In this document: in pieces, positions 2,228 to 52,293 of the stretch
Position numbering within the stretch: position 1 is the stretch's first letter
Layout of the letters: each line of letters begins with the position of its first letter
From: a virus
Lineage: Duplodnaviria > Caudoviricetes
Direction: 5' to 3' (one strand)
IMG/VR virus record: IMGVR_UViG_3300045999_001046
Span: 1-55,727 of that record
DNA length: 55,727 nucleotides
Translations under genes and position numbers: made by a program
The notes under the pieces: model-generated
What the model saw: only the letters and a program-made list of their open reading frames with translations
Database searches by the model: none
What the model was told of the DNA's origin: nothing

Positions 2228-2370
2228 AGCTTTACGGGCGAACGGCTACAAGGTCTTTTGATCAACCGTGTCGTCAAGGATATACGGGTAGTTTAGTAGC
2301 CCACCAAAATTTGAAACGCAGCAGGCTATTGTGAAAACTTCACTTTAGCCTGTTCCCCCTTGGAGCAAGC

Positions 2371-3933
2371 ATGCAAATCATCGAAGACAAAGCACTGTTA
2401 CTAAAAGTGCGGCATCCGGAACGGATCACGGAAGTGATACCGAAGAGCAAAGTACTAAACAACGGCGAGGTGCTGGTCAAGTGGGGGCTGGAGGAAGCGC
2501 AGGTGCTGAAGAACTTGCGTATCAAGAATGTGCCGTCACCCATCATGTCGCACTACCACTGGCCCGGCCTGTACCGTCCGTTCGATCACCAGAAAGAAAC
2601 CGCATCATTTTTGACACTGCACCGGAGAGCATTTTGTTTTAACGAACAGGGCACCGGTAAGACAGGCAGTGTGATCTGGGCGGCGGACTATCTGATGTCG
2701 CTAGGCCACATACGTAGAGTGCTTGTCCTGTGTCCGCTGTCGATCATGCAGTCGGCTTGGCAGAATGATTTGTTCAGGTTCGCCATGCACCGCACGGTGG
2801 CGATTGCCCACAGCCACTCCCGCCAGAAAAGAATCGATGCGGTGTGCAGCGATGCGGAGTTCGTCATCTGTAACTTTGACGGGTTGGACATCATCAAGGA
2901 CGCGATAAAAGAAAACGAATTTGATCTCATCGTCGTTGATGAAGCCAACGCATACAAAACAGTTTCCACGAAACGGTGGAAGGTGCTGAACCAAATACTG
3001 ACACCCAGCACATGGGTCTGGATGATGACGGGCACCCCTGCTTCGCAGTCCCCCACGGACGCATACGGGCTGGCGCGGATCGTCAACCCATCGTCGGTGC
3101 CTAAGTTCTTTGGGTCGTTCCGGGACATGGTGATGCAGAAGATCACCACCTTCAAGTATGTGCCACGCCCACAGGCAGAGTCTATTGTGCATAACGTGCT
3201 ACAGCCAGCGATCAGGTACACCAAGGAGGAATGTCTTGACCTGCCGGAGATGACATACACCACCCGTAACATACCGCTCACCCCTCAGCAGATGAAGTAT
3301 TACGAGACGCTGCGTAAGCACATGGTGGCGGTCGCTGCCGGGGAAGAGATCACAACAGTCAACGCCGCTGCCAGCCTGAACAAACTCCTACAACTTTCTT
3401 GTGGTGCAGTGTACTCTGATAGTGGAGAGGTCGTTGCCTTCGATGCATCTAATCGCATTGCAGCATTGAAAGAAGTTATCGATGAAGCTACACACAAGGT
3501 GATTGTATTCGCCCCCTATAAACATAGCATTCATATAATTAGCGAAGAGCTAAAGAAGTCTGGCTACACCTGTGAGGTAATTAGCGGAGATGTATCTGTT
3601 GGCAAGCGCACTGAAATCTTTGCCAAATTCCAAACAGAACCTGACCCAAAAGTTCTGGTAATCCAGCCACAAGCGGCCTCGCATGGTGTAACCTTAACTG
3701 CTGCCAACGTGATTGTGTACTGGTCGCCCGTCATGAGCGTGGAGACCTACCTGCAAGCTAACGCACGAACCCACCGTGCTGGGCAACGCAACCCCTGTAC
3801 CGTAGTTCACCTGCAAGGCTCCCCCGTAGAGAAACGTATGTACGCCATGCTGGAGGCGAAGATTGATATTCACTCCCGTGTGGTCGATCTATATAAAAAT
3901 TTCCTTGATCCTCTTGACAGTGTCAAAGAATAG
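2371..3933 (+). CDS. SNF2-family (SF2) DNA helicase
   Basis: NEQGTGKT, VVDEAN, MTGTP, HGVTLTAA, QANARTHRAGQ motifs. Confidence 0.92.
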   Translation: MQIIEDKALLLKVRHPERITEVIPKSKVLNNGEVLVKWGLEEAQVLKNLRIKNVPSPIMSHYHWPGLYRPFDHQKETASFLTLHRRAFCFNEQGTGKTGSVIWAADYLMSLGHIRRVLVLCPLSIMQSAWQNDLFRFAMHRTVAIAHSHSRQKRIDAVCSDAEFVICNFDGLDIIKDAIKENEFDLIVVDEANAYKTVSTKRWKVLNQILTPSTWVWMMTGTPASQSPTDAYGLARIVNPSSVPKFFGSFRDMVMQKITTFKYVPRPQAESIVHNVLQPAIRYTKEECLDLPEMTYTTRNIPLTPQQMKYYETLRKHMVAVAAGEEITTVNAAASLNKLLQLSCGAVYSDSGEVVAFDASNRIAALKEVIDEATHKVIVFAPYKHSIHIISEELKKSGYTCEVISGDVSVGKRTEIFAKFQTEPDPKVLVIQPQAASHGVTLTAANVIVYWSPVMSVETYLQANARTHRAGQRNPCTVVHLQGSPVEKRMYAMLEAKIDIHSRVVDLYKNFLDPLDSVKE

Positions 3934-3942
3934 TTCTAATCT
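3914..3942 (+). promoter_or_regulatory. sigma70-like promoter; -35 lies within a 13-bp palindrome
   Basis: TTGACA-17 bp-TAATCT; TTGACAGTGTCAA at 3914-3926. Confidence 0.6.
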
Positions 3943-3970
3943 GTAGCCGTAGTTACCCTTGGAGATCGAC

Positions 3971-4387
3971 ATGACTGAAGAAGCACTAGCAGAGGTGCCT
4001 GTCATCCCAACTGACAAGCTGGTGAAAGCGTACATCAAGATACGTGATGCCCGTAAGACGTTGGCTGACAAGTACGAGAAAGAAGACGCTGACCTCAAAG
4101 AGTCGCTGGAAGCAATCGAAAGCCAGCTTCTCGAAGCATGCAAAGTGGTCGGTAGTGACAGCTTACGAACACCATTCGGTACGGTCAGCCGCCGTGTATT
4201 AAAACGGTTCTGGACAAACGATTGGCATTCGTTCCACGAGTTCTTGAAGGAGCACGAAGCCTTGGAGTTACTGGAGAAGCGAATCTCGCAATCCAACATG
4301 GCTACGTTTCTTGAAGAAAACCCTGACCTGCATCCGCCGGGACTTAACGTAGATTCAAGATACGCCGTTGTTGTGAGGAGAAAATAA
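3971..4387 (+). CDS. conserved phage replication-module protein (coiled coil + beta domain)
   Basis: SD GGAGA at 3961; typical position between helicase and SSB. Confidence 0.75.
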   Translation: MTEEALAEVPVIPTDKLVKAYIKIRDARKTLADKYEKEDADLKESLEAIESQLLEACKVVGSDSLRTPFGTVSRRVLKRFWTNDWHSFHEFLKEHEALELLEKRISQSNMATFLEENPDLHPPGLNVDSRYAVVVRRK

Positions 4388-4931: not shown

Positions 4932-5813
4932 ATGAGCGAACTTGCTCTATTTAATCAGAATCTTCCCGCACACTTGCGTAACGCGGAGATGGATGAAACA
5001 ACCAAAGCCCTGATGGGTAGTGGCGGCGGTGGCAGCAAGCGCATCTCTATCGAGGGCGGCGTTTGGCGCATGATGGTCAACGGCAAGGAAGTTGCACAGA
5101 ACGAAGACCGTGCAATGAACGTAGTCATCGTTGCGGCTGCACAGAAAGTCTCGCGTATCTTCTACGCAGGCACCTACAAGAAAGGCGTTATCAGCGCCCC
5201 GGATTGCTGGTCACCTGATGGCGAAGTGCCAGATGCCAAAGCCAAGAACCCACAGAGCAAATCGTGCGCTACCTGCCCACAGAACGTAAAAGGTTCGGGC
5301 AACGGCGATACACGTGCATGCCGCTTCCAGCAGCGTCTGGCTGTGGTGTTGGAGAACGATGTTGCGGGTGATGTGTACCAGCTTGCACTGCCATCCACAT
5401 CGATCTTCGGTGCAGGCGAGAATGGCAAGTGGCCTCTGCAAACCTACGCCAAGATGATCGCAAGCAAGGGTGTGCCTATTACGTCCGTCGTAACAGAGAT
5501 GCGCTTCGACACTAGCAGCTCGACACCGAAGCTGACGTTCAAGCCAGTACGTTATCTGGAGACGGATGACTTCAACACCGCGCTGGAGCAGGGCAAGTCC
5601 TTGGCAGCTATCAATGCAATCACCATGACTGTCGCGCAGACTGATGGCGTTAAGGATGACGGCGAGGAGTTCGAACAAAAAGCACCCGCTGCCAAAGTCG
5701 AAGCAGCACCTGCGGAAGTGCCGGAGCCTACTAAACGCGCAAGCAAGAAGGAGGAAGCCCCAGCACCCAAGAAGGACGTAAGCAAAATCCTCGAAGAGTG
5801 GGATGATGAGTAA
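4932..5813 (+). CDS. single-stranded DNA-binding/annealing-like protein
   Basis: SD AAGGAG; PDCWS..CATCPQN..ACR Cys cluster; acidic C-terminus EEWDDE; genomic context. Confidence 0.6.
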   Translation: MSELALFNQNLPAHLRNAEMDETTKALMGSGGGGSKRISIEGGVWRMMVNGKEVAQNEDRAMNVVIVAAAQKVSRIFYAGTYKKGVISAPDCWSPDGEVPDAKAKNPQSKSCATCPQNVKGSGNGDTRACRFQQRLAVVLENDVAGDVYQLALPSTSIFGAGENGKWPLQTYAKMIASKGVPITSVVTEMRFDTSSSTPKLTFKPVRYLETDDFNTALEQGKSLAAINAITMTVAQTDGVKDDGEEFEQKAPAAKVEAAPAEVPEPTKRASKKEEAPAPKKDVSKILEEWDDE

Positions 5814-6048
5814 CGGGTACGCATCCCGGTTTATTAAAGCTGTGAATTCAGCGGACACCAACAAGCTTGGTGTCCAGCTTGGCAACCTGTGCATAGAAAA
5901 CGATATACCAGCACAGGACGTGGCGGAGCACTTTGGAGTAACTCGCACCACGATATACAACTGGTTCAAAGGGCTGACGAATGTCCCGCCCGCGCATCAG
6001 GAAATTGTTGCCAAGGCTATCAAAGTGCTGCTGGATAAACGGAAATAG
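5803..6048 (+). CDS. XRE/Cro-like helix-turn-helix protein
   Basis: AQDVAEHFGVTRTTIYNWFKG HTH signature. Confidence 0.85.
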   Translation: MMSNGYASRFIKAVNSADTNKLGVQLGNLCIENDIPAQDVAEHFGVTRTTIYNWFKGLTNVPPAHQEIVAKAIKVLLDKRK

Positions 6049-6141
6049 CGCAGGTTTGGGGGGCTAGGGCGCGCACCCGAAGAGGGTAGTTGCCGTCACT
6101 ATCCCTGCCCACCCATTTTTAAAAGACGGCTTGGGGCGGCT

Positions 6142-9003
6142 ATGCTTACGAGGACAGACTTCCTGTCTTTAGTTTTACCACCTACGGGGCACTATTGCGT
6201 AGTGGGGCTAAAGAAGGATGCAAAACCAAAACAAATATTCGTGTCGTCAATAGAGGAGATTGATCTCTATGCGGATGCGCTGGTGCATAAAGGGTACGAC
6301 GCGTACTTTGCACTTGCTTCGTTCACTGAAGATACGGGACGGACTGCTGCCAATGCAGCACAACTAAATTCTTTCTTTCTCGATCTCGATTGCGGTCTTG
6401 GTAAGCCTTATGCTGACCAAGCGGATGGTATTGCTGCGCTCAAAGAGTTCGTGAAAAAAGTTGGTATGCCAAAGCCAACTGCGATTGTGAACTCCGGACG
6501 TGGGGTGCATGCGTACTGGGTAGTAGAGCAGCCTATCGAGAAAGCCGAGTGGCGTGGATTAGCGGAAGGTCTCAAGGCACTGTGCACGGCGCACAACCTG
6601 CATGCTGACCCAGCAGTCACCGCTGACGTTGCGCGTATCTTGCGTATACCAAACACGCTGAACTTTAAGAACCCGGATGACCCGTCACCCGTGAAGCTTG
6701 TCATGGCTGGGTCTCGCGTAGGTATAGAGGCGCTGCGCGATAAGTTCGTGGCGAATGAACTACACATCCCCGGCGAGAAACCGTTTCAGCGGGAGATGGA
6801 CCCGACTACGCTGGCACTGCTGGGCAACTATCAGTCCAAGTTCAAGACCATCCTGATCAAATCAGTACAAGGAGAAGGCTGTGCTCAGATTGCGCACATT
6901 TATCAAAATCAGGACTCCGTGGAGGAACCGCTATGGAGGGCAGGCTTATCGATTGCTCACCACTGCGCCGACGCAGCAAAAGCCATTCATATCCTCTCGA
7001 ACAAACATCCGGAATATGATGCGCGTACAACTGAAAAGAAAGCAGCGCAGACCAAAGGTCCATACACTTGCGAGACCTTTAAAAAGCTATCACCTGCGTT
7101 ATGCGAGGGCTGTACGGTCAAGGTTACCTCTCCTATACAAATCGGACGAGAAGTTATCCACCCCGACGAAAATGCGGATGACCCGGTTGTACAGGACGTT
7201 GAGCCTGTTACCCAAGAAGTGCGTCAGTACACGATACCTAAATACCCTTTTCCTTTCTTTCGTGGGAACGTAGGTGGTATCTATTTACAGGTAGAACCGA
7301 AGAAGAACAAAGACGGCACCGTAGAAAGCATGGAAGACATACTAGTTTTCCCGCATGACTTCTATGTTGTGAAGCGACTGCACGATCCTGAAGAAGGTGA
7401 GTGCATCATGATGCGACTGCATTTACCAAAAGACGGTGTGCGTGAGTTCATCATGCCGCTGCGGGAAGTCATATCCAAAGACAGATTCATGGGCGAGATT
7501 GCCAAGCATGGTGTGGCGATCATCGGTAAAAAACAGGAGGCAATGATGTTATACACCACCCGCTGGGTTGAGGAGCTTCAGGCAATCGGCAAAGCTGAGA
7601 TTGCTCGAAAGCAGTTTGGTTGGTTGTCAGATAACAGCGCGTTTATTCTGGGCGATAAAGAAGTCCGGCACGATGCTATTGAGTACAGTCCGCCTTCCGC
7701 TGCGACACTACCTTTGATACCTGCGTTTGGTGTGCGCGGTGACTTCCACGTGTGGAAAGATGTGGTCAACCATTACCGGCATCCCGGCATGGAGCTTCGT
7801 GCATTGGCACTCTTTATGGGTTTTGGTGGGCCGCTGATGAAGTTCGTGGCAGGCGGTGCGCTGAATGGGTTCCTGCTGAATCTGGTCAGTAAAGAAGGCG
7901 GCACCGGTAAATCAACGCTGCTGCAAGCAATCAATAGTATCTACGGCAACCCTGATGCGCTGATGATGTCCTACAAGGATACGCACAACTTCCGCTTGCA
8001 GCGGTTTGGCAGCATGCAGAACATCACCGCGACGATTGACGAGCTGACCAATATGAAGCCGGAGATGATGTCCGATCTGGTGTACGACATTACATCAGGT
8101 AAAGGTAAAGGCCGGATGTCCGCCAAAGCCAACGTGGAGCGGGTTAACAATACGACATGGCAGCTACCGGTGGTCTCTTCCTCCAACAAGGTGATCCGGG
8201 ACGCGCTGCTGTCGATCAAGTCTTTCCCCGAACCGGAACTGTTGCGCATACTGGAGGCAAATTTAGCTATTGATAGTTCGCTCGATGCAGTGCAGGCCAA
8301 GCAGCACTTTGGCAGGTTGCCAAGCAACTACGGACACGCAATCATCCCCTACATCCAACACGTACAAAGTGACTTACCTGCGATGATTGAATTGTTGAAT
8401 GGTGTGAACGAAAAGTTAGACCGGGCGGCAGGCATCATGGGCAACGAGCGGTTCTGGTCTGCCGGTATGGCGATTGGCCTGACAGGCGGCATCATCGCGG
8501 CTCGGTTGGGGTTGCACGACATTCCGGTCAAGCCGGTGATGGACTGCGCGGTGCAGTTGATTCAGAACAGCCGCCGCAGTAACAAGGAGTCAATGTTCGA
8601 CAGTGAAGATTTCCTTGGCGCGTTCCTACAGCGGCACTTCCACGAGATTCTGGTGATCAACGGGTCGAAGGACAACAAGACTGGGCTGGAGCATGCGCCC
8701 ATCCGGGAACCCCGTGGCCCACTAACCGTACGGTATGAGCCAGATACCAAGCTGTTATTTGTGTCGGTACGCCCGTACCGGGAAGATTGCAGCAAGTATT
8801 CGATGAGCTATGACGGGTCGCTGGAGCCGTACCAGAAGGCTGGGGCTTTCCTTGGAATGAAGCGCAAGCGGATGTTTGCAGGCACGATTACCAATACTGC
8901 GCAGAATGTACACGCGCTGGTGTTCGATGCTTCGAAGCTGGACTTTTTTAATGAGGATGTCCTGCTAAATGCTCCGGATTCTATCCCTTCCGATTTCGAT
9001 TGA
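6142..9003 (+). CDS. primase-helicase fusion (AEP/RepB-like primase + DUF927-type P-loop helicase)
   Basis: FLDLDC and NSGRGVHAYW primase motifs, RILRIPNT, Cys cluster, GGTGKST Walker A, TIDELT Walker B. Confidence 0.85.
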   Translation: MLTRTDFLSLVLPPTGHYCVVGLKKDAKPKQIFVSSIEEIDLYADALVHKGYDAYFALASFTEDTGRTAANAAQLNSFFLDLDCGLGKPYADQADGIAALKEFVKKVGMPKPTAIVNSGRGVHAYWVVEQPIEKAEWRGLAEGLKALCTAHNLHADPAVTADVARILRIPNTLNFKNPDDPSPVKLVMAGSRVGIEALRDKFVANELHIPGEKPFQREMDPTTLALLGNYQSKFKTILIKSVQGEGCAQIAHIYQNQDSVEEPLWRAGLSIAHHCADAAKAIHILSNKHPEYDARTTEKKAAQTKGPYTCETFKKLSPALCEGCTVKVTSPIQIGREVIHPDENADDPVVQDVEPVTQEVRQYTIPKYPFPFFRGNVGGIYLQVEPKKNKDGTVESMEDILVFPHDFYVVKRLHDPEEGECIMMRLHLPKDGVREFIMPLREVISKDRFMGEIAKHGVAIIGKKQEAMMLYTTRWVEELQAIGKAEIARKQFGWLSDNSAFILGDKEVRHDAIEYSPPSAATLPLIPAFGVRGDFHVWKDVVNHYRHPGMELRALALFMGFGGPLMKFVAGGALNGFLLNLVSKEGGTGKSTLLQAINSIYGNPDALMMSYKDTHNFRLQRFGSMQNITATIDELTNMKPEMMSDLVYDITSGKGKGRMSAKANVERVNNTTWQLPVVSSSNKVIRDALLSIKSFPEPELLRILEANLAIDSSLDAVQAKQHFGRLPSNYGHAIIPYIQHVQSDLPAMIELLNGVNEKLDRAAGIMGNERFWSAGMAIGLTGGIIAARLGLHDIPVKPVMDCAVQLIQNSRRSNKESMFDSEDFLGAFLQRHFHEILVINGSKDNKTGLEHAPIREPRGPLTVRYEPDTKLLFVSVRPYREDCSKYSMSYDGSLEPYQKAGAFLGMKRKRMFAGTITNTAQNVHALVFDASKLDFFNEDVLLNAPDSIPSDFD

Positions 9004-9169
9004 TTGGAAGAACTTCCGCCCGGATACCTCGATCTTCATACCCTGTCTGGATTACCGCCCAGTGCAGGAGTTTGTGGAGACTGAGGCTACCCGGCTGCGG
9101 ATGCAAGTTGTTTGCAAACGGGTAATAGAAAACCGTAAGTACGGATTGCGTGTCTGGAGATTGGCATGA
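8969..9169 (+). CDS. small conserved phage protein
   Basis: SD GAGGA; SIFIPC...YGLRVWR pattern; followed by promoter and terminator. Confidence 0.7.
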   Translation: MLRILSLPISIDWKNFRPDTSIFIPCLDYRPVQEFVETEATRLRMQVVCKRVIENRKYGLRVWRLA

Positions 9170-9175
9170 TATGCT
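9146..9175 (+). promoter_or_regulatory. extended -10 promoter for the candidate sRNA
   Basis: TTGCGT (9146-9151), 18 bp, TG-a-TATGCT (9167-9175). Confidence 0.5.
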
Positions 9176-9181
9176 TGGCGC

Positions 9182-9253
9182 ACTCACTGCTTTCTCCAAG
9201 GGAAGTTGAGTTCGCCCCCGTGTGCTTCTCCCCTTTGCACCGGGGGCTTTTTT
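9182..9253 (+). ncRNA. candidate two-hairpin anti-Shine-Dalgarno small RNA
   Basis: Non-coding; hairpin 1 ACUCA...UGAGU carries UUUCUCCAAGGG, the reverse complement of the CCCTTGGAGAAA RBS motif; hairpin 2 is the terminator with loop UUCUCCCCUUU. Confidence 0.5.
9214..9253 (+). terminator. Rho-independent terminator at the convergence of the replication and late modules
   Basis: GCCCCCG-TGTGC...GCAC-CGGGGGC followed by T6. Confidence 0.85.
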
Positions 9254-12200
9254 ACATCCCCGCCATCTGCTTCAGCTTCGGTACGTTGTAAGCTTGCAGC
9301 ACTTCTTTCTCAATTCGCAGTATCTCATCCACCTTTTCGCGCTTTTCCGCCGGTGATAGGTCGGCATCATTAGCGATGATGTTGCGGTACTGACGTAGTT
9401 TCCCGAGCTGGTCCTCAATCTTATTGATAATACCCTTCATGGAGTACAGTTTAAGCTTGTCCTCTGATAGGTAGTCTTGTAGCTCTTCCGCACGGCCTTC
9501 GCGCTTGAAGGTATTAACTGAGTTGACTACCTTGTCCACACGCTCACGGAACTCATAGAACTCTGTCTTATACCCACGCCCAGTGTCGTCGTACATAAAC
9601 GTCTTGACCAACGGCAGCTTGTTGGTAGGCTTAGCCATCCGGTTGGGGTCACCCGCCGCATCAGTTACATCAAGTAGCACTCCACCTACCGTGCCAAGAT
9701 AGCCGCGTACCAGATAGTCAGCCTTCATCGGAGAAATGCCGACATACCCAAAGAGTTTGGCAAGTTCTGATGTCCGGTCGTTGAACTGCAAGTAGGTCTC
9801 TTTACCCGCCATGTTGATGCCAACAATCGGGTTGCCTGTGAAGAACGAATAGTTCGTCGCTACTTCAACAGCAGGCTTGAGCAACTGAGGCATCAGGTTA
9901 ACCCCACCATACGCGTTGATAGCCGCATCCTTCATACCCTTCATAAAGGTCGTAGCGTCTACCGGACGCTCAGTGCCAGCCCGTGCGATAGCTTGGTACA
10001 TGCGCTCTGGGATAACTTTGAACAGGAAACCAATCTCCGGTGGTACAGGCAGCTTCATACCGGTGCCGGGGATAATAAAGTTAAGATCACGCTCGCGGTC
10101 ATCCAGACCTTTGTAATCGTCATCGTCGCTTACTAACGCGGCATACAGCATAGATAGCGCAGCGACTTTCGCACCTGTACCGAAGAACAAAGCCATAGCA
10201 GCCTTGCGATCCTCCATCGCCAACCCTTTACCCTGCATAGTGCGATACAGCACGTCCATACCTTGGATGTAGGCGTTCATGAACGGGACAATCTGGCGCA
10301 GGATACGCACTGTCTGCCCATCACCAGCGGTTTTAAAGTTGATGTACTCCTTGGCGCGGTGAAAAGCCAGCACTCGGTCGCCGGTCTCTTTCATGGTCTG
10401 GTCGTAAATAGCAGCACGTACTGCCATATCCGCTGACAACGAGAAGTCCTCCAGCTTGTCCCAGAACCGCCCAATAGCTGCACGGTCTTGCAGCCCATGC
10501 CGCTCACGCACTTTACGCATGACGTGATCCGGCATCCCATCGTAAGCACCAGTAATACCTAGCCCCTGAATATCAGACTCGCTGCCGGTGACTGCTTTGT
10601 AGAAGTTGCCAAGGATTTGCGTAGGTAGTGAGAACGGATGCTTCACACCCGACAAGAACATCGCACGCACCGTATCCTGTGTAAGCTGGCTCAGCGCGAA
10701 GGTTGGCATGTGGGTAACGAAGCTACGCAGCCCGGTAGCAGCAGTTCTAAACGCACCCAACACAGGCCCTGCAACGTCAATGATGTTGGAGAACGCTGCC
10801 AAGTCTTCCTGATTCTGCAAGCGGAACGCCACACGCTCACCATCACGGTAGGCAAACACCACCAAGTGGCGGTTGTTTTTCAGTTCGCGGTCAACCTCAT
10901 CCTGTGTCTTTAACTCATCAGCAGATGGCAACGCCTCAAGCGTCTTAATAGCCGCACGGTTTTTAGTACCTGAGCGCATCGCCCAGATAGTGTGCCCAAC
11001 CATGTTGTCGAGCACATTGCGGATTTCCTTGGAGCTGCCTTCTTTGTCCAATGTAGGAAGATTGGTCAAGTGCACGTTACCGGTACGAATCTTGGTCAGC
11101 CCGTCTACTTTGCTGTCCTCTTCCTCGATACGCGTCCACGGCACGTAGCCAATGTTGTCTTTCCAAGATTGAGCTTCAGCAGTGCTCAACCGCCCGGTGG
11201 CAACCAAGAAGTCGGTGATGCCTTCGTTGTACTTGGTGAATACGTCAAACGCTTGTTTGAGTTCCGGGAACTCACGCATCGCCTCGAGGCCAGCATCGAT
11301 CTCTTCTTGTGAAGCACGGACTTGCACGATCTGCTTACGTAGCAGTTTGGCAGCGGTTTTGTTGCCCTTGGCTTCTGCGGCTTCAGCCTGCTGGCGCAGG
11401 GTTTCTGCACGTTTGTTCAGCTCATTAGCCCGTTGCGCGATGAATGCACGGTGGGCAAGTGTGACAGCAGTTTTAGCTGATCCAAGCTTTGCACCTAGCT
11501 CCTCCGTAATAATCTCAAACACACGGTCAAGACTAATCTGTTGCCCATCTTCTACGCGGTCATAGACTTCAAGCAAACCATCTTTACCAATACGTACCCC
11601 ACCCTTACGCATCAGTTGGTCAGCCAGACCAGTCGCTTCCTGTGCCTGCTCATTCAAGATGTCAGGGCGGATATTGCCCAGCGAGTCTGTTACTTTGTTT
11701 TGGAATACCGCTGCAATCTGTTCTTTGACTGGGGCATCCTTGTCCACGACTGCCTGCCGGAACTTCATTGGCAAGCCTCTAGCTTTGCCTGCTTGCAGTG
11801 TTAATCGATCTAACAACGTCTGATCAACATTAGGTTCTGGCTCGTTGCCGATACCCTTCATGCGTTCGTTCAGCGCAGCAGCACGTTCCCCTTCAGGGGT
11901 CAATACTTCAGCGTTTCGTAGCTGATACGAAATCCGAGCATCTTCAGGATTAAATGCCCCGGAGTTAAACGGTGACTTTAGCTGACTGCTGTTGTAGACA
12001 GCGAGGTTTTTGTGACCGCCTTCTTTGACATAGAAGCCGTCATGCCCTAATGCTTTAATTGCTTTTTGAAATTCTGGCCTTTCTATCGTACTCCAATTAC
12101 CTTCATAAATATCTCCAGCAAACGTGTCTCCTCTTCTGCCGTTAGGAGATGTTTCGTTTAATTTTTTAATTAACGCTGCAACATGCTCTTGGTTTTGGTA

Positions 12201-15200
12201 GTCAAACGGATTCTGGGCACTAACGTATACCGGGACGATATTTGCACGGGAAGGCATTTCATTTAGAGCAAGCGTTCTAAGCTCATCAGCAACATCTGTG
12301 CCTGCACGTTCGGCAATTTTTTGGGCTTCTTTAATAAGTTCTGCCACTTTCTTCGGAGGTAAAAACTCCTCCATGCGGGACTGCATATAATCTTCAGACA
12401 GTTCAGCAAAAGTTTCAGCAAACCTCGGATTATCAGTCACGAAGATCGCATTCGCTTGCTTAGGACGGAACTCCTCAATATCCCGTGCGGTGCCGTGATA
12501 CATCAGCTTTGGTGAGCCATCCGGGTTGCGGATAACTGAGTTGCCAAACCACTTCTTAAAGTTAGCAGTCGCAGTATCCAACAGTCCTCGCACCATCGAC
12601 TGGGCTTCACCGGTTTTCAGATCAGCAGTGGATTTGACCGAAGCCTTTTTTACTTCTTTCAAGTATTGAACGAAAGTCTCATCTGCCAGATACCGCTTGT
12701 TCTTCAGGTTGCCGAAGAAGCTACGCAGAGCCCGTCCTAACCGCGCAAAGTATTTTTCTACGACAGAGATAGGCTTCTCATCCGTAGTTGCCCAACGAGA
12801 TACTTGGTCTGCATACCATTCATCAAAGCTGCGCCAGTACGGCTTCAATTCATCAGCCATACGCCCTTCAGGTACGCGTGTTTGTTTTGCAGCAGTCTTC
12901 GCACGTAGTGCGTCAACGAGTTCCCGTGCAGTCTTACCTTTTTGGGTACCTAACCACTTCTCGAATGACTTCTGTATAGAAGCTTGTAGTTCGGGCGAAG
13001 CGTTGTTGTACATCTCCTTCATATGCACATGCCCAAGCTCATGCGCCAACACTTCAAGCATTGAGGTTTTGCTGGTAGATGCCGTGAAAGCAATATAGTA
13101 ATCGCCGTTAGACAGCCGACGCATAGACCCTGCGTTCAACGGATCAAGTGCTGCCGAGCCAATCGCCCGATAAGGGCCAGTGAACTTACTTATATCTGCC
13201 CGCGCATCTTCCATCGTTGTGATGTAGATATTGGCGCGTAATCCAAGCAGTTTTGACCAGCCAGCAACAACTTCGCCAAGACCTTTCGGCGTATTCTTCG
13301 AAGTCTGGATATGCCCTTTGGTGAACTTAATAAACGGTTTAGTTTTGTGCGCTTGTTCAGCAGCATATTCTTGCCGTTTCTTTTCCGCCACCATTTGGGC
13401 GCGTTCTTGGGGAGTAAAAAGATTGCCTGTATAGGACTCAATATCAAGTTTAGTACGCTGCGATCCTTTTGCAGCGGGGTATACAGGCGCTCCTGTAAGT
13501 GCGGAATACCCGCGTATCAGTGCAAGGTCACCTTCCTGCCAAGCTATTTCACCGCCGAGGTCTTTGGCATGCTGTTCCGCAATAGCACGTTGCTCTGGGG
13601 TGTAAGGTAATTTTGGCGCTGTTTCGCCTTTCAAAGAACGAAGTTGCTCTTCAAGGTCTGCTTCTGCTACTTCTCCAAACCCATCCGTAATATCCTCGAC
13701 GATACCTTTTGCTTCCGCAGGCTTTAGTTTGCCTTCTTGCACCAACCTACGGGATGCTTCTTTAGGAGTTACTTTCCCTTTAGTAGTCGTAGGAGCAGCA
13801 GGTGCTTCCACCGCCGGGGCAGCGGCAGGCGGTACAGCAGGCGCGATAGGTTCACGTGATACCCCTTCTAGTGCAGTTGGCTGTACTCCCGCTCCGACAT
13901 CAGGCTGTTCAGTAACCCCTCCAGTAACATCCATTCCCCCGGTGACAGGTGCTGTAACTCCTCCGGCGGGTACTGCTCCTCGTTCGCCAGCCACTGTAGG
14001 GCTAGGCTCAACTGCTGGTTGGACAGGTTCTGTAGGTTGGATGACATCAGTTGCCTCCTTTGCTTTTTTAGCGCGTGGCTTTCTTGGTGGACGCAGATCA
14101 AGTTCACCTTGCTCCATGAACACCGGACTGCTCAAGAAGTTGTTAACCCCTTCGATCAGCTTAGGGCTGCGGTTAGGGTCGTTAGCAAAATCAGTCAGCA
14201 CTTCTTGAACTTCGGCACGCTGGGCGGGATCAACCAAATCCTTGCCCATAATAGCTTCACGCAACTTCTTATTGGTCGCGCCAATACCCATCACCTTGAA
14301 GTCAGCTTCGGTAACCGGGCGAGTTTCAACCGCTTCCTCCATAGTAGGTGCAGGTTGAATGTACTGTGGACCAAGACGGAACCCCGGTTCTTCTTCAGGA
14401 ACTACTAGTTCAGGTGCTGGCTGTGCCTCAAACAGGGCGCGTTGCTTACGCTCATCCATCTGCAAAAACGCACGATCAGCATCTGTAACCGCCTCACCAG
14501 CTTGCAGTCTGCTTTGTATGTCCTGTAGACGCTGCTGACGGAAGAACTCTGTTTGTTCAGGCGTGATCCCTTCGGGAGCAGTAGGTGCTTCACCCAGCAC
14601 AACACCTTCGCCAGTCTGCTGTCGAGGCATCGCAGGAGCTTCAAAGTCCAACCCCATCTGCTCCGGTTCTGGTGCAGCACCCGCACGCCCTGCGTCTTCC
14701 AAACCTTTGGACAGTTGCTTGATCTGAGTTGCAAGACCCTCACGAGCGGTGTTCAGCTCATTTGCTCGATTGAGGATGGCGGTCTTTTGCTCATCAGAAG
14801 CTGCGGCCTCGAACTGTCCTTTCAGGCGGTCAATCTCACGCATCAGCACGTCATGCTGATCTCGCAACTCAGTAATCTGGAACAGCCGATTCTGACGTTC
14901 GGCTTCTTTTTCTTCTGCTGCGCGGAACGGCTCTGGTGGCGCACGGAACCCTTCGTATCCTTCACCTAGCTCAGGCACTTGTCCGAGCGGCAGTTGTCTG
15001 GCTTCAGCCGGTACACCTACTGCGGGTTGTGCCGCTGGTGGTTGCGCCCCCGGTGCGCCTCGTGCTCTACGTCCAAGCGCGGCATCCATCAAGAACCGAG
15101 TTAGCGCACCAGCACCTGCACCATAAGCGCCTTCTTCTGCGGCACCAGCAAAGATTGGTTGTTCTGGGTTGTAGAGGCCCTGCGCAATCATGTTCTGCGC

Positions 15201-15833
15201 GACTTTCTGGGCGGCTTCCGTTGCGCCTTCAACGCCACCTGTGGCAGCGGCGCGGGCAATGATGGACTTACCTACTTTAATTTGTGGGGCCAGCAAGTCG
15301 AGCAGACCAACCGGCGTACCCAGCAGAGTAGCCATAGCGCGGTCTTCACTAGTAGCACCCTTTTCTTCAGCAGCAAGACGCGCTTCACCCGCACCCGCAC
15401 CGGCACCAAGACCAACACCAGCAACCCTACCCGCAACACCAAGTGGGCCAGTTGCAAAGAATGGGATTGTGGAGCCTAGCGCCTCACCAAACTTACGTGG
15501 AATTTCTTCTTCGTAACCAATTTCAGGCGCAAACGGTTTCCGTAGCGCAGCACCTTTTTCTTGGATGAATTTGCGCGTGGGCTCTTCGTACCCTTCAGGC
15601 AGCATAGCCGCAGCACCAACCCCAGCAGTCTCAAGCAACCCAACGGCACCGGAGGGAATGCCCTTGAAGAACTCTTTGACTTCGCCACCGATAGTGGGGC
15701 CTGCGGCTAGTTTACGAAACTGCGCCGGGGTTAGCCCCTCTGTTGCCAAATAACCGTCAATGTGAACCGGGGGCGCATTCTGATCGATCATGCTCCGGAC
15801 GTTAGCGATGATCTGTTCATAGCGGTTTGCCAT
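9252..15833 (-). CDS. giant internal virion/ejection polyvalent protein (zincin metallopeptidase, ADP-ribosyltransferase-like and LPD38-like domains)
   Basis: 2193 aa; VLAHELGH..FDEWYAD; NFKKWFGNS..PKLMYHGT; C-terminal IVPFMNAYIQG..NYSFFTGNPIV; last gene of the late operon. Confidence 0.7.
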   Translation of the reverse strand: MANRYEQIIANVRSMIDQNAPPVHIDGYLATEGLTPAQFRKLAAGPTIGGEVKEFFKGIPSGAVGLLETAGVGAAAMLPEGYEEPTRKFIQEKGAALRKPFAPEIGYEEEIPRKFGEALGSTIPFFATGPLGVAGRVAGVGLGAGAGAGEARLAAEEKGATSEDRAMATLLGTPVGLLDLLAPQIKVGKSIIARAAATGGVEGATEAAQKVAQNMIAQGLYNPEQPIFAGAAEEGAYGAGAGALTRFLMDAALGRRARGAPGAQPPAAQPAVGVPAEARQLPLGQVPELGEGYEGFRAPPEPFRAAEEKEAERQNRLFQITELRDQHDVLMREIDRLKGQFEAAASDEQKTAILNRANELNTAREGLATQIKQLSKGLEDAGRAGAAPEPEQMGLDFEAPAMPRQQTGEGVVLGEAPTAPEGITPEQTEFFRQQRLQDIQSRLQAGEAVTDADRAFLQMDERKQRALFEAQPAPELVVPEEEPGFRLGPQYIQPAPTMEEAVETRPVTEADFKVMGIGATNKKLREAIMGKDLVDPAQRAEVQEVLTDFANDPNRSPKLIEGVNNFLSSPVFMEQGELDLRPPRKPRAKKAKEATDVIQPTEPVQPAVEPSPTVAGERGAVPAGGVTAPVTGGMDVTGGVTEQPDVGAGVQPTALEGVSREPIAPAVPPAAAPAVEAPAAPTTTKGKVTPKEASRRLVQEGKLKPAEAKGIVEDITDGFGEVAEADLEEQLRSLKGETAPKLPYTPEQRAIAEQHAKDLGGEIAWQEGDLALIRGYSALTGAPVYPAAKGSQRTKLDIESYTGNLFTPQERAQMVAEKKRQEYAAEQAHKTKPFIKFTKGHIQTSKNTPKGLGEVVAGWSKLLGLRANIYITTMEDARADISKFTGPYRAIGSAALDPLNAGSMRRLSNGDYYIAFTASTSKTSMLEVLAHELGHVHMKEMYNNASPELQASIQKSFEKWLGTQKGKTARELVDALRAKTAAKQTRVPEGRMADELKPYWRSFDEWYADQVSRWATTDEKPISVVEKYFARLGRALRSFFGNLKNKRYLADETFVQYLKEVKKASVKSTADLKTGEAQSMVRGLLDTATANFKKWFGNSVIRNPDGSPKLMYHGTARDIEEFRPKQANAIFVTDNPRFAETFAELSEDYMQSRMEEFLPPKKVAELIKEAQKIAERAGTDVADELRTLALNEMPSRANIVPVYVSAQNPFDYQNQEHVAALIKKLNETSPNGRRGDTFAGDIYEGNWSTIERPEFQKAIKALGHDGFYVKEGGHKNLAVYNSSQLKSPFNSGAFNPEDARISYQLRNAEVLTPEGERAAALNERMKGIGNEPEPNVDQTLLDRLTLQAGKARGLPMKFRQAVVDKDAPVKEQIAAVFQNKVTDSLGNIRPDILNEQAQEATGLADQLMRKGGVRIGKDGLLEVYDRVEDGQQISLDRVFEIITEELGAKLGSAKTAVTLAHRAFIAQRANELNKRAETLRQQAEAAEAKGNKTAAKLLRKQIVQVRASQEEIDAGLEAMREFPELKQAFDVFTKYNEGITDFLVATGRLSTAEAQSWKDNIGYVPWTRIEEEDSKVDGLTKIRTGNVHLTNLPTLDKEGSSKEIRNVLDNMVGHTIWAMRSGTKNRAAIKTLEALPSADELKTQDEVDRELKNNRHLVVFAYRDGERVAFRLQNQEDLAAFSNIIDVAGPVLGAFRTAATGLRSFVTHMPTFALSQLTQDTVRAMFLSGVKHPFSLPTQILGNFYKAVTGSESDIQGLGITGAYDGMPDHVMRKVRERHGLQDRAAIGRFWDKLEDFSLSADMAVRAAIYDQTMKETGDRVLAFHRAKEYINFKTAGDGQTVRILRQIVPFMNAYIQGMDVLYRTMQGKGLAMEDRKAAMALFFGTGAKVAALSMLYAALVSDDDDYKGLDDRERDLNFIIPGTGMKLPVPPEIGFLFKVIPERMYQAIARAGTERPVDATTFMKGMKDAAINAYGGVNLMPQLLKPAVEVATNYSFFTGNPIVGINMAGKETYLQFNDRTSELAKLFGYVGISPMKADYLVRGYLGTVGGVLLDVTDAAGDPNRMAKPTNKLPLVKTFMYDDTGRGYKTEFYEFRERVDKVVNSVNTFKREGRAEELQDYLSEDKLKLYSMKGIINKIEDQLGKLRQYRNIIANDADLSPAEKREKVDEILRIEKEVLQAYNVPKLKQMAGM

Positions 15834-46607: not shown

Positions 46608-48149
46608 TTAGTAATACGCCTTCTTGCGCCTGAATTCCCTTACTTCTTCCGGCTCATCCAGTTCTGTCCGGAGGAAGCCACCCTTACGGAAGCGCGACAT
46701 GGCGAGGGATACCGAGTCCACATAGTCATCATGCTCCCCACCGGGGAACGACGCCACCTCATCCACCACTTCTTCCGCCCACCTTGTGTTGGGTACCCAG
46801 ACGCGCCCGGAGGCGAAGATGTCTGACACCGCATTTAATCTACTAATCTTGTCGTTGCCCTTGTTAGGCGTGAATTCTTGCACAGGCACACCCATCGCCC
46901 GCATCTCGTATATCAGCGGCGCACCCGATGCCTTCTTCTCGATAATTATGGAGTCAGGTTCCCACTCCCGATACTCTTCCAGCGCCTTGCGTTTTAGCTC
47001 CGGAAACTCCATGCGCTTGCGAATAGCGTTTAAGAGGATGATATTAGCCTGCATAATGCCTGCCGAGTCCTCTTTATAGAAGACACCCCATGTAGTACAC
47101 GCACTGTAGTCGGCTCGATTGTGTTTCTCGAACGCCGTATCCCAGCTTTGCAAGGTGAATTCACAGTACGGAGGGCTATCATCCTCCCAGATTTGCCACC
47201 ATTCCCGCTTCACAATCGCCGAGCTGTCTGAGGTGGGCTGCTGCATGTACTGCGCCATCCATTTCTGGTTGGGCAGTTCGTTTCTGAGAGCTTGAAGTTC
47301 TTTAATTGACCAAAACTCAGGCCAAAGTGGGTTGCCAGAGGGCAAAATCGCCGGAAACTCGATCACCGTCCACTCATCGCCGTCTCTTTGCGCAGCAGAC
47401 TTGATTACTTGCCCCGTCAAATCCTTCTTTGACCAGCGTGTCATCACAATGATGATGGAGCCGCCCGGCTGTAAACGCTGACGAGGGCCAGATGTGTACC
47501 ACTCGTACGTCTTATCGTAGATTTCGGGGTTAATTTCGGCGAGCGCCGCCTCTTGTTCGCTGTGCGGATCGTCAATAATCAGAATATCCGCGCCTTTACC
47601 GGTTACCGCACCGCCAATACCGATAGCGAAGTAGTCACCGCCCTTGGATGTGTTCCACCGGCCCGCTGCTTTAGAGTCTGACTGGAGGTGAGTGTCCGGG
47701 AAAACCGACTTATATACGTCGCTGTCCACCAAGTTACGGACTTTTCGACCAAAACCCACCGCCAATTCGGCTGTATGGGAGGTCTGAATCACCTTTTTGT
47801 GAGGAAAATTGCCCAGAAACCACGCTGGCAGCAGATATGACGCGAATTCTGACTTGGTATGCCGGGGTGGCATGTTGATGATGAGTCGTTTGATCTCTCC
47901 ACGAGCCACCTTTTCAAACGCCTGAGCCATTCGGACATGGTGCGCTCCATTAATAAAGGAAGGCCAGACCTTATGGACAAACGCCATAAAGTTCGTTTTT
48001 GCCGTATTGGCTTCCTTGCGAGTAGTCAACTCCTCCAGTAACTCCGCCGCCTTGATCTGGACTTCCTGCGGCAGGGCATTCAGTAGGGTCGGGTTACTCT
48101 TTATGGACTCCAACAGGTTCGGCTTCGCTGTCTGCTGGTTCGGGGTCAT
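46608..48149 (-). CDS. terL: terminase large subunit
   Basis: NMPPRHTKS Walker A, IIDDPH Walker B, MTRW, SWDTA, IEKKASG, HDDYVDS. Confidence 0.95.
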   Translation of the reverse strand: MTPNQQTAKPNLLESIKSNPTLLNALPQEVQIKAAELLEELTTRKEANTAKTNFMAFVHKVWPSFINGAHHVRMAQAFEKVARGEIKRLIINMPPRHTKSEFASYLLPAWFLGNFPHKKVIQTSHTAELAVGFGRKVRNLVDSDVYKSVFPDTHLQSDSKAAGRWNTSKGGDYFAIGIGGAVTGKGADILIIDDPHSEQEAALAEINPEIYDKTYEWYTSGPRQRLQPGGSIIIVMTRWSKKDLTGQVIKSAAQRDGDEWTVIEFPAILPSGNPLWPEFWSIKELQALRNELPNQKWMAQYMQQPTSDSSAIVKREWWQIWEDDSPPYCEFTLQSWDTAFEKHNRADYSACTTWGVFYKEDSAGIMQANIILLNAIRKRMEFPELKRKALEEYREWEPDSIIIEKKASGAPLIYEMRAMGVPVQEFTPNKGNDKISRLNAVSDIFASGRVWVPNTRWAEEVVDEVASFPGGEHDDYVDSVSLAMSRFRKGGFLRTELDEPEEVREFRRKKAYY

Positions 48150-48717
48150 CTAAGGCTGCAAGTTCCGCATCAATATCGATCAAGGGTTTTGGACGCGCCG
48201 GGTCTTCCCCGTTCTCAATCACGTCCGCGTTACCCATGTATTTCTCCAAGAGCGTCACTAGCTCGCCTTCAAGGTCGGCTGTGGTTTTTTGCTTGATGGT
48301 GATCTCCATCTGCTCGCTGAACAGATTCACACCTCTACGTTTGCCTAGCAGTTCTAGGGCTTTCAGTCTTACTTTGGGGTCTTCGTCTTCGGTTTCTTCA
48401 AGGAGCCGATTAGTGACGTAGTTGGCGATGCGGCGGTTTGCGCCTAAGAACTCGTGGTCGTAACTTGTCAGGAGTGCTTCAAGTTTCAGAATGGCACCGG
48501 GCGGTGTACGCACTACATTGAGTGGACGTTGTTCCGCGAATAGTTGGTGGGCTACCGCGCTGTCCTCGGTGGTCAGGGGTATCTCGCCCCCTGCTTCCAA
48601 CAAACTTTTGATCGTCTCGCATGCCGTAGCTGCGCGTTCACGAAACTGCTCCACCTCCTCCGGTGTTACGTCCAGAGGTAGTGGTATGCCAACTTCAGGT
48701 GTGATGACGAGGGGCAT
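48094..48717 (-). CDS. terminase small subunit-like protein
   Basis: Upstream of TerL; DPKVRLKALELLGK; start MPLVITP inferred. Confidence 0.55.
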   Translation of the reverse strand: MPLVITPEVGIPLPLDVTPEEVEQFRERAATACETIKSLLEAGGEIPLTTEDSAVAHQLFAEQRPLNVVRTPPGAILKLEALLTSYDHEFLGANRRIANYVTNRLLEETEDEDPKVRLKALELLGKRRGVNLFSEQMEITIKQKTTADLEGELVTLLEKYMGNADVIENGEDPARPKPLIDIDAELAALDDPEPADSEAEPVGVHKE

Positions 48718-48985
48718 AGGCAAATTGTCGTGTTCTGCTTTCGCAGATTTTTTACATACCCCCCGCCTAATGGAACCTAAATAAAAAGGCAAGGGGGTGT
48801 GTTTCTATTTCGCGGAGTATAGCCATGCTTGGAATTTTTGCAAGGGGTGGGGGGTGTTGTCATTTTTGTATGTGATGTTGGGGGAGTGGTGACGGGATGT
48901 GTAAAACACAGCGCAGCGGGGCGGCGGAGTCCCATTTGCCAGCGCGGGGGGTAGGGGTACGGTGGGGTCGGCGGGTATCGAATTC

Positions 48986-50686: not shown

Positions 50687-50715
50687 TTGACAAACGGAAA
50701 GACTTGTGGCATAAT
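50687..50715 (+). promoter_or_regulatory. strong sigma70-like early promoter
   Basis: TTGACA-17 bp-CATAAT, TGn extension, A-rich upstream region. Confidence 0.8.
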
Positions 50716-50752: not shown

Positions 50753-50769
50753 CTTAGGTCAGACCTAAG
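50753..50769. promoter_or_regulatory. palindromic operator, copy 3
   Basis: CTTAGGTC-A-GACCTAAG between promoter and RBS. Confidence 0.75.
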
Positions 50770-50787
50770 CAACCCTTGGAGAACATT

Positions 50788-51576
50788 ATGACTACTAAAA
50801 AACCTTCGGGCTACATTATCTATCGCGGCCCTTCTCTTTTGGACGGCAAACCCATTGTCGTTGTGGCAATCGTCAAAGAATCCAAAAATGCCAAGACCGG
50901 CAACATGGTGCAGACATACATCTTGGTGGATAACGGACTAAGCCCGGTGGAGTCAGCGCGGTCACTGGCTGATGTATCTATTTGTGGTGACTGCAAACAT
51001 CGGCGCGGTACAGGCGGTGCGTGCTACGTAAACCTCGGTCAGGGTGCTCGGTCAGTGATGGACGGCGTGATGCGCGGTATCTATCCGAGTGTCCGGCTGA
51101 GTGAAGCGGCTGATGTAGTTGCTGGTAGGAAAGTGAGACTCGGCACGTACGGTGACCCGATGGCGGTTCCTGCCTATATCTGGTGGGGCTTGCTCGAGCA
51201 TGCCGATTCGCATACTGGCTATTCACATCAGTGGAACCCAGACACCGAGATTGTCAAATCGTTAAACATTCTGCATCCCGGTCAGTATGACGAGGTTCGC
51301 GAGCTGTGCATGGCATCGGTGGATAACGAGGACGAGTACGCACACGCAGTGTACGAAGGCTGGCGCACGTTTCGCGTACGTGGGCTGGATGATGCCGAAA
51401 AAGCAAGCAACGAGTTCGTGTGCCCGGCATCCGAAGAAGCTGGCAAGAAAAAACAATGCCACGAATGCATGGCATGCAACGGTGTCGGTGAAGATGACTC
51501 ACGTATCAAAAAAGCAACTGTCGTGATCACGGTTCACGGCTCACTCAAGAAACGATTCGAAGTACGTGCAGCGTGA
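50788..51576 (+). CDS. Cys-rich putative Fe-S protein (gp88/radical-SAM-like)
   Basis: NAKTG, CGDC..ACYV, VRLGTYGDP, TGYSHQW, CPAS..CHECMAC; function call tentative. Confidence 0.55.
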   Translation: MTTKKPSGYIIYRGPSLLDGKPIVVVAIVKESKNAKTGNMVQTYILVDNGLSPVESARSLADVSICGDCKHRRGTGGACYVNLGQGARSVMDGVMRGIYPSVRLSEAADVVAGRKVRLGTYGDPMAVPAYIWWGLLEHADSHTGYSHQWNPDTEIVKSLNILHPGQYDEVRELCMASVDNEDEYAHAVYEGWRTFRVRGLDDAEKASNEFVCPASEEAGKKKQCHECMACNGVGEDDSRIKKATVVITVHGSLKKRFEVRAA

Positions 51577-51613
51577 GCTGTGTGTGATGAGCGGGGGATT
51601 CGTCCCCCGATTC

Positions 51614-51628: not shown

Positions 51629-51642
51629 ACTTGGAGAACGAT

Positions 51643-52283: not shown

Positions 52284-52293
52284 GAGGTGTGTG

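Follow-up and report, generated by a model that had tools for sequence, protein, structure and literature searches.

A base-pairing small RNA (sRNA) that occludes ribosome-binding sites (RBSs) is already a known kind of regulator, and this report concerns a candidate gene of that kind in an uncultured phage. The stretch analysed is IMG/VR virus record IMGVR_UViG_3300045999_001046 (Duplodnaviria; Caudoviricetes), 55,727 nucleotides (nt) long and called the window in its whole length hereafter; the putative sRNA gene lies on the + strand at 9180-9253, and its RNA would pair with the RBSs of the phage's own replication genes. By analogy, the nearest described phage system is c4 of P1/P7. c4 pairs around the RBS and blocks translation, and its specificity differs between related phages (PMC12197685). 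The likeness to the present locus lies in a phage small RNA, in pairing with an RBS region elsewhere on phage mRNA, and in the joint variation of RNA and target; however, c4 has one target region (the antirepressor operon) and a role in temperate immunity (PMC12197685). In contrast, the RNA proposed here would have its own promoter and would address at least 7 genes, which lie 3-45 kb away in several transcription units behind at least 2-3 separate promoters. Neither the single target region nor the temperate context of c4/CI-type immunity antisense RNAs was found: no integrase or repressor was seen among the window proteins scanned (Pfam/PHROG-type family scans), and there is no relation to c4 in sequence or in Rfam. 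c4 is cut out of the same transcript as its target by RNase P processing, and the CI RNA of phage P4 belongs to the same background.

In terms of function, the nearest analogue is RegB/RegA of phage T4. RegB cuts the GGAG Shine-Dalgarno (SD) sequence, with the extended consensus GGAGRAYARAA, and RegA/RegB inactivate many early mRNAs via their initiation regions (PMC3014915). The likeness lies in the joint shutdown of a marked early regulon through translation-initiation regions (TIRs) (PMC3014915). The T4 regulators are proteins, whereas the recogniser here would be an RNA acting by base-pairing. RybB and OmrA/B (enterobacterial RNAs with a 5' seed) and RNAIII and RsaE (staphylococcal RNAs with a C-rich, SD-pairing loop) are chromosomal regulators of host regulons. 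They resemble the candidate in being short, with a conserved single-stranded seed, a Rho-independent terminator and many targets near the SD. However, their sequences are unrelated to it, and here the targets would be the phage's own replication module, marked by a clade-specific private SD extension. Lambda OOP and P22 sar, likewise small phage RNAs, each have a promoter and a terminator of their own and lie between genes or where a gene ends; they act on the gene encoded opposite to them, sar by covering an RBS. In contrast, the complementary RBSs of the window lie at 2357-3965 and 50773-55370, so that the action would be in trans, and only the T-run of the terminator overlaps the stop codon of a convergent gene of 2193 amino acids (aa). 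To our knowledge, phage-encoded regulatory RNAs are few and most of those known control a single adjacent gene or genes of the host; among the papers listed in full-text literature searches, none described a phage sRNA directed against an RBS motif common to the phage's own early genes.

Complementarity between the candidate RNA and early RBSs

The element consists of the following parts.

9146-9151, + strand: -35 hexamer TTGCGT, on the Leu-Arg codons of GLRVW
9167-9175, + strand: extended -10 (TG at 9167-9168, A, TATGCT at 9170-9175), called on conservation
9180-9253, + strand: predicted sRNA of ~72-74 nt, with its probable start at 9180-9182 and its 3' end in the T-run
9182-9211, + strand: hairpin 1 (outer stem ACTCA/TGAGT; inner stem 9189-9195 with 9200-9206; loop CCAA at 9196-9199)
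9191-9202, + strand: putative anti-RBS seed TTTCTCCAAGGG, perfect complement of 53011-53022 and complementary over 9-11 nt to six other RBSs
9214-9253, + strand: intrinsic terminator (GC-rich stem 9214-9247, T6 at 9248-9253), which also ends the + strand gene block

We regard the presence of a discrete small-RNA gene at this place as likely. On balance, we also lean towards the reading that its RNA pairs in trans with a private RBS motif of the replication genes and represses their translation. In what follows, genes of the + strand replication module are called early and those of the - strand structural block late. The original prediction had named a 15-mer seed, TGCTTTCTCCAAGGG (9188-9202), as complementary to the RBSs of seven early or replication genes, and our analysis confirmed all seven sites, with 9-12 contiguous nt.

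2357-2373, + strand: RBS and ATG of the SNF2 helicase gene (2371-3933; Pfam SNF2-rel_dom), 14/15 complementary to 9188-9202, 9 contiguous
3956-3973, + strand: RBS and ATG of a 138-aa gene, 10-nt helix; TTGACA-17-TAATCT ~16 nt upstream
50773-50790, + strand: RBS and ATG of a 262-aa gene, 11-nt helix; 11/12 sigma70 promoter at 50687-50715
51630-51645, + strand: RBS and ATG of a NinX-like 110-aa gene (Pfam NinX), 9-nt helix
52679-52695, + strand: RBS and ATG of a 93-aa gene, 11-nt helix; 11/12 sigma70 promoter at 52633-52661
53011-53029, + strand: RBS and ATG of the AAA (MoxR-like) ATPase gene (Pfam AAA_5), 12-nt perfect helix
55361-55378, + strand: RBS and ATG of an open reading frame (ORF) running off the window end, 10-nt complementarity

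The last site was left out of the TIR gene set, its ORF having no stop codon in the window. The RBS at 4921 (gene at 4932) is complementary to the seed over 8 nt; the label 'SSB' first given to this gene could not be verified, as the protein had no Pfam hit and belongs to a PHROG family without known function. The shared motif of the window is (C)CCTTGGAGA(A), also given as (C)CCUUGGAGAA(A), and stands 5-7 nt ahead of the ATG. The 9-mer CCTTGGAGA has six copies in the window, five of them at + strand RBSs and one, inverted, in the element. With up to 1 mismatch, TTCTCCAAGG occurs 13 times against 2.87 expected, a number reached in none of 100 shuffles; its only exact + strand copy is the element, and the 4 exact copies on the - strand each coincide with the RBS of a + strand gene. 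A contiguous helix of at least 9 nt was found in 6/17 called + strand TIRs of the window vs 0/50 - strand TIRs, and none of 200 dinucleotide shuffles of the window RNA reached the observed score.

Some further observations were made around these motifs. An early-type motif CTTGGAGAAATAC (48242-48251, - strand) with an ATG at ~48235 lies within ORF 48094-48792, close to where the late block begins, and might indicate an internal or alternative start site. Many early RBS motifs are immediately preceded by clade-specific palindromes, which could be operators or RNA hairpins: in the window CTTAGGTCAGACCTAAG (8-1-8), at 50753-50769, ~52981-52996 and ~51613-51625, and in the early regions of distant clades (G001/G002/G015/G011/G012/G014) ATAAACA-N2-3-TGTTTAT or TTAAAC-N3-GTTTAA. 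A conserved AGCCTGT(T/A) ~5-8 nt upstream of the SNF2 RBS motif (window ~2340-2356; also G003, G006, G007 and G009) could belong to a promoter or to an element of the 5' untranslated region.

Co-variation of RNA and RBS motif in related phages

Relatives were collected by a primase search (23 loci, 99% to 49% identity) and by a search with the alignment of a small ORF next to the element, which gave 80 further loci out of 94 confirmed; at least 94 loci are present in IMG/VR. For the comparison of RNA and RBS we used 22 element-bearing contigs and one element-less contig, in which the first 34 nt of the RNA (62 nt for the long variant) were set against all TIRs (-25 to +3) and helices of at least 9 nt, with one G.U allowed, were counted. 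Plain RNAduplex energies showed a modest early/late contrast and were too noisy, and the contiguous-helix counts were used instead.

Our results revealed three clade-specific early RBS motifs, CCUUGGAGAA, GGAGAGUGC and AAGGAGCUAA, and the element of each clade carries the matching complement. In the superclade of the window, the RBS (C)CCUUGGAGAA stands opposite UUCUCCAAGG(G) in the RNA, and early TIRs with such helices numbered 6/17 in the window, 10/29 in G006, 9/42 in G007 and 9/42 in G009, with 0-1 late TIRs. The TIR of the SNF2 ortholog co-varies with the element in G003, where UCCCUUGGAGAA pairs with UUCUCCAAGGGA, in G009, with a 14-nt perfect match of GCCCUUGGAGAAGC, in G007, where CCUUGGGGAA pairs with UUCUCCAAGG with one G.U, and in G011 of the second superclade, where AUUGGAGAGUG pairs with CAUUCUCCAAU. 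In three other early TIRs of G007, ACUUUGGAGAA pairs with UUCUCCAAGGU, and in G010 and L057 a seed G stands opposite U. Relatives with the CTTGGAG RBS also keep the seed, whose absence from them had been named beforehand as evidence against the proposal.

In the second superclade, the RBS GGAG(A)GUGC(A) stands opposite the 5' end of the RNA, GCACUCU. The complement GAGTGC was present in 24/250 early vs 0/238 late TIRs of seven genomes of this superclade, and in 1/187 early TIRs of the window superclade (0/17 in the window). In G011 GCAUUCUCC pairs with GGAGAGUGC; G012 has matches in 6/30 early TIRs, including two of 12 nt that cover a GTG start, and G015 has one of 13 nt. In the held-out genome G017, the RNA starts with GCACUCUCCUUC, and three early TIRs carry perfect 11-12-nt complements to its nt 1-12. 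The third, variant clade sets an RBS of the form AAGGAGCUAA(C/U) against GUUAGCUCCUUUU in the RNA, the complement of AAGGAGCUAA being also given as GUUAGCUCCUU. Early TIRs were matched there in 7/32 (G019), 8/35 (G021) and 9/31 (G023), late TIRs in 0/57, 1/40 and 0/11, respectively, and 0 of 100-200 shuffles reached the score.

Non-cognate pairs of RNA and TIRs scored low (0-3 TIRs) and the matrix was block-diagonal, with the exception of G010, whose RNA bears both seeds and matches the TIRs of G011. Shuffles reached the observed score in at most 1% of trials in 17/22 element-bearing genomes and in at most 3% in 19. Co-variation of seed and RBS motif in related phages had been proposed as a check by the original prediction, and it was found in three clades, each with its own matched pair, so that the co-varying complementarity expected of a trans-acting sRNA is present in three motif classes. 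The core of that prediction, an sRNA with a seed against a shared RBS 'address', passed this comparison; two parts did not hold throughout, as a second anti-SD in the terminator loop is not conserved and one clade lacks the extended match (see below).

Promoter and overlapping small ORF

The promoter overlaps the following coding sequence.

8969-9169, + strand: 66-aa ORF, conserved as a protein in all relatives, overlapping the end of the DUF927 primase/helicase gene by 35 nt

A TTGCGT -35 and an extended -10 (TG-A-TATGCT) had been predicted in the gap after the last replication gene. Both are present, but the -35 and the spacer (18 bp in the window) lie inside the 66-aa ORF, which had been missed; its last codons hold them and its stop TGA forms part of the extended -10. 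The non-coding gap proper spans 9170-9251.

The stretch that follows the YGLRVWR codons of this ORF was represented by 61 unique sequences. Of these, 53 have the canonical element complete and 1 has it with a broken T-run; contig ends truncate 2, a further 3 are variants and 2 are element-less. In the canonical plan, TAnnnT is separated by 4-7 GC-rich bases (mostly 6) from GCACTCT, for which one subclade has GTAACTCC; next comes a short hairpin, pyrimidine-rich in its 5' arm and purine-rich in its 3' arm, and then a U-rich linker, the GC-rich terminator and a T-run. In the -10 hexamer, 53/53 unique aligned elements share T1, A2 and T6; positions 3-5 vary among them, with 12 different combinations, and so does the discriminator. 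The -35 hexamer is TTGCGN in 54/57 unique sequences. Its Leu codon is TTG in 55/55 Leu-bearing unique element-bearing sequences vs 23% TTG among Leu codons genome-wide, and the Gly and Arg codons flanking this fixed TTG vary freely. The spacer is 17 bp in 41 sequences, 18 bp in 15 (the TG-bearing group) and 12 bp in 1, that is 17-18 bp in 56/57; the TG of the extended -10 is present in 18 unique sequences. GCACTC starts 4-7 nt (mostly 6) past the -10 in relatives, where the transcript would be expected to start. The small ORF stops before the element or enters it in different frames among relatives, indicating that the element is conserved at the nucleotide and not the protein level.

Comparison among relatives thus gives strong evidence that the promoter is under selection. 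We read it as a sigma70 promoter because of TAnnnT, the fixed TTG, the 17-18-bp spacing and the conservation at the nucleotide level, and the evidence is likewise strong that the transcript would start at about the G/A of GCAC, window 9180-9182. On the basis of this conservation the candidate has a promoter of its own, as expected of a trans-acting base-pairing sRNA. Embedded in coding sequence, the promoter would constrain synonymous codon choice, the Leu codon being fixed as TTG.

In the element-less relatives (two unique sequences at three loci: L059, its duplicate and L063; a side list gives the contig of L060, G020), promoter, RNA body and terminator are all gone together and the convergent gene comes directly after the small ORF. 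The -35 site has Val codons there (GTACGT, GTGCGC), without TTG. The joint loss indicates that the three parts form a discrete module. These relatives are natural 'knock-outs' of the element.

The 66-aa ORF always directly precedes the RNA gene and holds its -35. Its invariant residues include W13, F16, P25, C26, FIPC and YGLRVWR, and searches placed it in no Pfam and no PHROG family. The AF2 model (pLDDT 86.6) has a beta-alpha-beta-beta fold and gave no PDB match at E<=0.001. A role of this protein as RNA chaperone was considered and is without support, there being no family and no significant fold match.

RNA body, terminator and pairing energies

Folding of 9180-9253 gave two hairpins and U6 at -33.6 kcal/mol (z = -4.9; 0/200 shuffles fold as well), in agreement with the non-coding stretch of two hairpins and a T6 terminator that had been predicted. 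The CCC/GGG core pairs of the terminator are kept in 53/53, and a Rho-independent terminator with a U-tail comes right after a short non-coding body, as expected of a trans-acting sRNA. The RNAs of most relatives begin with an unpaired 5' tail and a short hairpin, after which a U-rich linker leads to a GC terminator with its U-tail. Across the family, conservation is highest in GCACUCU at the RNA's 5' end, and in most of the wider family it is this end, not a hairpin loop, that forms the conserved complementary part. In minimum-free-energy folds the GCACUCU tail is unpaired in most relatives; for the pre-terminator segment, the 5' end is unpaired over at least 2 nt in 43/46 unique relatives and over at least 6 nt in 25/46.

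The seed of the window had been placed in hairpin 1. It does lie there, at 9188-9202, but mostly inside the stem, with just CCAA in the loop, and for the pre-terminator segment the folding energy is -10.1 kcal/mol (z = -1.6). In these fold models, the window is the least favourable case for seed accessibility. Net pairing gains were calculated from co-folds of the full RNAs with TIRs (-35 to +15), with the unfolding cost charged. They reached -23.3 and -19.6 kcal/mol in G009 and -19.0, -17.7 and -16.9 kcal/mol in G012; in the window, the best early targets gave -9 to -10.7 kcal/mol, and gains of -9 or lower were obtained for 4/17 early and 2/50 late TIRs. The window does have the second anti-SD in its terminator loop, but this is retained in the closest relatives only and was discarded as a conserved feature. 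Between L070 and L072, the elements are identical except for an exact inversion of the 17-nt terminator loop, which looks like a hairpin-mediated inversion.

No Rfam family is matched by the element: a search of window 8900-9400 against Rfam 15 gave nothing above the gathering threshold (best atoC, 19 bits vs a cut-off of 50), and no match was found at the element in the loci of ten relatives. Three distant relatives have matches to Rfam int-alpA (RF02996; 37.5-38.1 bits vs a threshold of 35.8; L095:106-179, L114:89-155, L058:86-150), which sit upstream of the primase gene and ~3 kb upstream of the element; in window 5700-6300 int-alpA had no match at E<=1.

Proposed mechanism and alternative explanations

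We propose that 9180-9253 is the gene of a ~72-74-nt trans-acting RNA that would be transcribed by the host sigma70 RNA polymerase from its own promoter, with a terminator that doubles as the end of the + strand replication gene block. Its pyrimidine-rich seed (UUUCUCCAAGGG in hairpin 1 in the window, the unpaired 5' end GCACUCU(CC) in most of the wider family) would base-pair with a private extended SD motif, which marks at least 7 genes of the replication module, among them those of the SNF2 helicase and the AAA ATPase, the NinX-like gene and the ORF at 55376. Pairing across the SD would block 30S binding and perhaps speed mRNA decay, and the translation of the whole replication regulon would be lowered together, as feedback or as a timed shut-off. 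The sequences show the anatomy of promoter and terminator with its conservation, the complementarity, its confinement to + strand genes and its co-variation from clade to clade; we infer the production of the RNA, its pairing in vivo, repression as the direction of the effect, and its timing, including the early-to-late switch of the original prediction.

Several points weigh against this proposal. The seed of the window is largely paired (GCUUUCU with GGGAAGU) in a 12-bp hairpin with a CCAA loop, its net pairing gain is modest, and 2/50 late TIRs reach similar values. A consensus promoter scan did not flag the site in the window, whose hexamers score 7/12. Hairpin 1 had a mean z of -1.24 in 46 unique relatives, with at most 10/200 shuffles as stable in 8/46, and RNAalifold on a MAFFT alignment recovered 4 pairs, in the terminator core only, because hairpin 1 is out of register in the alignment. 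In one clade (G013, G014 and G022; RBS TTAACAGGAGTTAATAA) matches reach at most 7 nt and shuffles attained the score in 72/200, 38/200 and 43/100 trials, respectively, and G002 is also weak (6/200). Genomes within a clade are not independent, and there are ~3-4 independent motif classes plus several flank changes. The count of G.U-compatible vs A.C mismatches (20 vs 12), meant to separate RNA pairing from DNA sites, did not differ significantly. The assignment as 'early' came from strand and gene content only, with genes called by a crude ORF/SD heuristic. Finally, the runs holding the stretch were 24 of DNA (lake, freshwater and other metagenomes) and 0 of RNA, which is no evidence either way.

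It is conceivable, though unlikely, that a real small RNA has another main job, acting on host mRNAs or on read-through late transcripts, to which it is perfectly antisense, or stabilising or activating its targets, and that the match to early genes reflects in part a generic anti-SD-like pyrimidine composition. The family's most conserved GCACUCU would fit such a role, its complement being present in 0/17 early TIRs of the window and 1/187 of its superclade, as would the clade whose RNA has no extended match to its own early TIRs; in addition, the terminator hairpin lacks a U-tail on the - strand, and late transcription could cross the element. However, only the cognate RNA matches each of the three clade-specific RBS flanks past the GGAG core, with 9-14 nt, and late genes bear SDs yet are unmatched (0-1 per genome). 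We consider it improbable that the shared motif is instead a DNA site of a phage regulator, an operator or roadblock downstream of early promoters, with the element as one more copy, inverted, where the two gene blocks converge. The sites of one protein would likewise all change together from clade to clade, the early genes do carry clade-specific operator-like palindromes, and the mismatch count gives RNA pairing no significant favour. Yet the motif always holds GGAG 5-7 nt from the start codon, the copies of CCTTGGAGA are confined to five RBSs and the element, and a selected promoter and terminator flank the element copy only. A DNA site would leave unexplained the selected -35/-10 upstream, the fixed distance from the -10 to GCACTC and the terminator downstream, and the segment that matches in the second superclade coincides exactly with the 5' end predicted for the transcript.

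The element might also simply be where the + strand operon ends, with a stabilising hairpin and an intrinsic terminator but with no promoter of its own and no function in trans, the complementarity being incidental. A terminator is needed between convergent blocks anyway, the arms of hairpin 1 pair CUCC-like with GGAG-like sequence, so that any such hairpin resembles an anti-SD, and a simple promoter scan finds nothing. Against this stand the conservation of TAnnnT, TTG and the 17-18-bp spacing, a match that reaches the clade-specific flanks and co-varies with them, and 0/200 composition-preserving shuffles that reach the observed score; moreover, a processed 3' untranslated RNA would remain a small RNA with the same seed. 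This explanation is very improbable in our view, and that of the motif as the RBS of an expressed minus-strand gene (GTG at 9187, ORF 9187-8981), which had been raised with the original prediction, is hardly tenable. The - strand of the window does read CCCTTGGAGAAAGCA followed by GTG at a 6-nt spacing like that of real RBSs, the 68-aa ORF is open there, and L003 has an ATG at the same place. However, the start is lost with the motif kept in close relatives (ACG in L004/L006, AGA in L008/L009, TTG-TAG in L007, none in G007/G009), and stop-free runs, which are 29 to 97 codons long, keep to no constant frame; it is the overlapping + strand ORF that is conserved as protein, and no Pfam family was found. 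The minus-strand ORF was rejected because neither its start codon nor its frame is conserved in relatives.

Genome setting

The IMG/VR record of 55.7 kb has a completeness of 88% (CheckV). Its + strand genes, at ~49.0-55.7 kb and 0-9.2 kb, form the replication module, with products including a family A DNA polymerase fragment, a PD-(D/E)XK nuclease, the SNF2 helicase, an HNH endonuclease, the NinX-like protein, the MoxR-like AAA ATPase with a VWA partner and a 953-aa DUF927 primase/helicase (6142-9003). The - strand genes, from 9252 to ~48.9 kb, form the structural or late block, and its final gene is that of the 2193-aa polyvalent protein (9252-15833, -) with LPD38 and ADP-ribosyltransferase (ART-PolyVal) domains, whose stop codon the T-run overlaps. 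The sRNA element is located precisely at the convergence point of the two blocks. The sigma70-type promoters at 50687-50715 and 52633-52661 (+ strand) read TTGACA-17-CATAAT (11/12), and the host RNA polymerase therefore plausibly transcribes the + block. The ORF at 55376-55726, which has the early RBS motif, is still open where the record stops at its 3' end, and the family A DNA polymerase fragment (1-1101) enters from its 5' end; the two may be one gene split by the record ends, though their frames do not join directly.

A nucleotide search of INPHARED phages with window 8000-10500 gave no match. The nearest cultured phage in a primase protein search was Pseudomonas phage Rollin (28.6% identity), in which the genes abut at the corresponding locus, with no gap and no element. 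A prophage/host search of genome contigs with the small-ORF alignment gave 18 pattern hits, of which 0 were confirmed.

Implications

A further, rather doubtful idea is that the private, clade-specific SD extension is read by a single ~55-80-nt RNA in at least 3 orthogonal codes and that this RNA also acts as translational immunity. If this were true, the RNA of an infected cell would shut off a superinfecting phage's replication genes if that phage belongs to the same clade, but not if it belongs to another; in apparently virulent phages this would amount to a multi-gene analogue, based on RNA, of P1/P7 heteroimmunity. What sets the locus apart is multi-gene self-targeting together with the parallel divergence of 'address' and 'reader' in an uncultured freshwater phage family. 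If our reading is right, the RNA would be a counterpart of the protein-based early shut-off of T4 (RegA/RegB) and would show that a regulon can be addressed through Shine-Dalgarno flanks, and the family would hold naturally orthogonal pairs of sRNA and RBS in three codes, which may be usable as translational switches.

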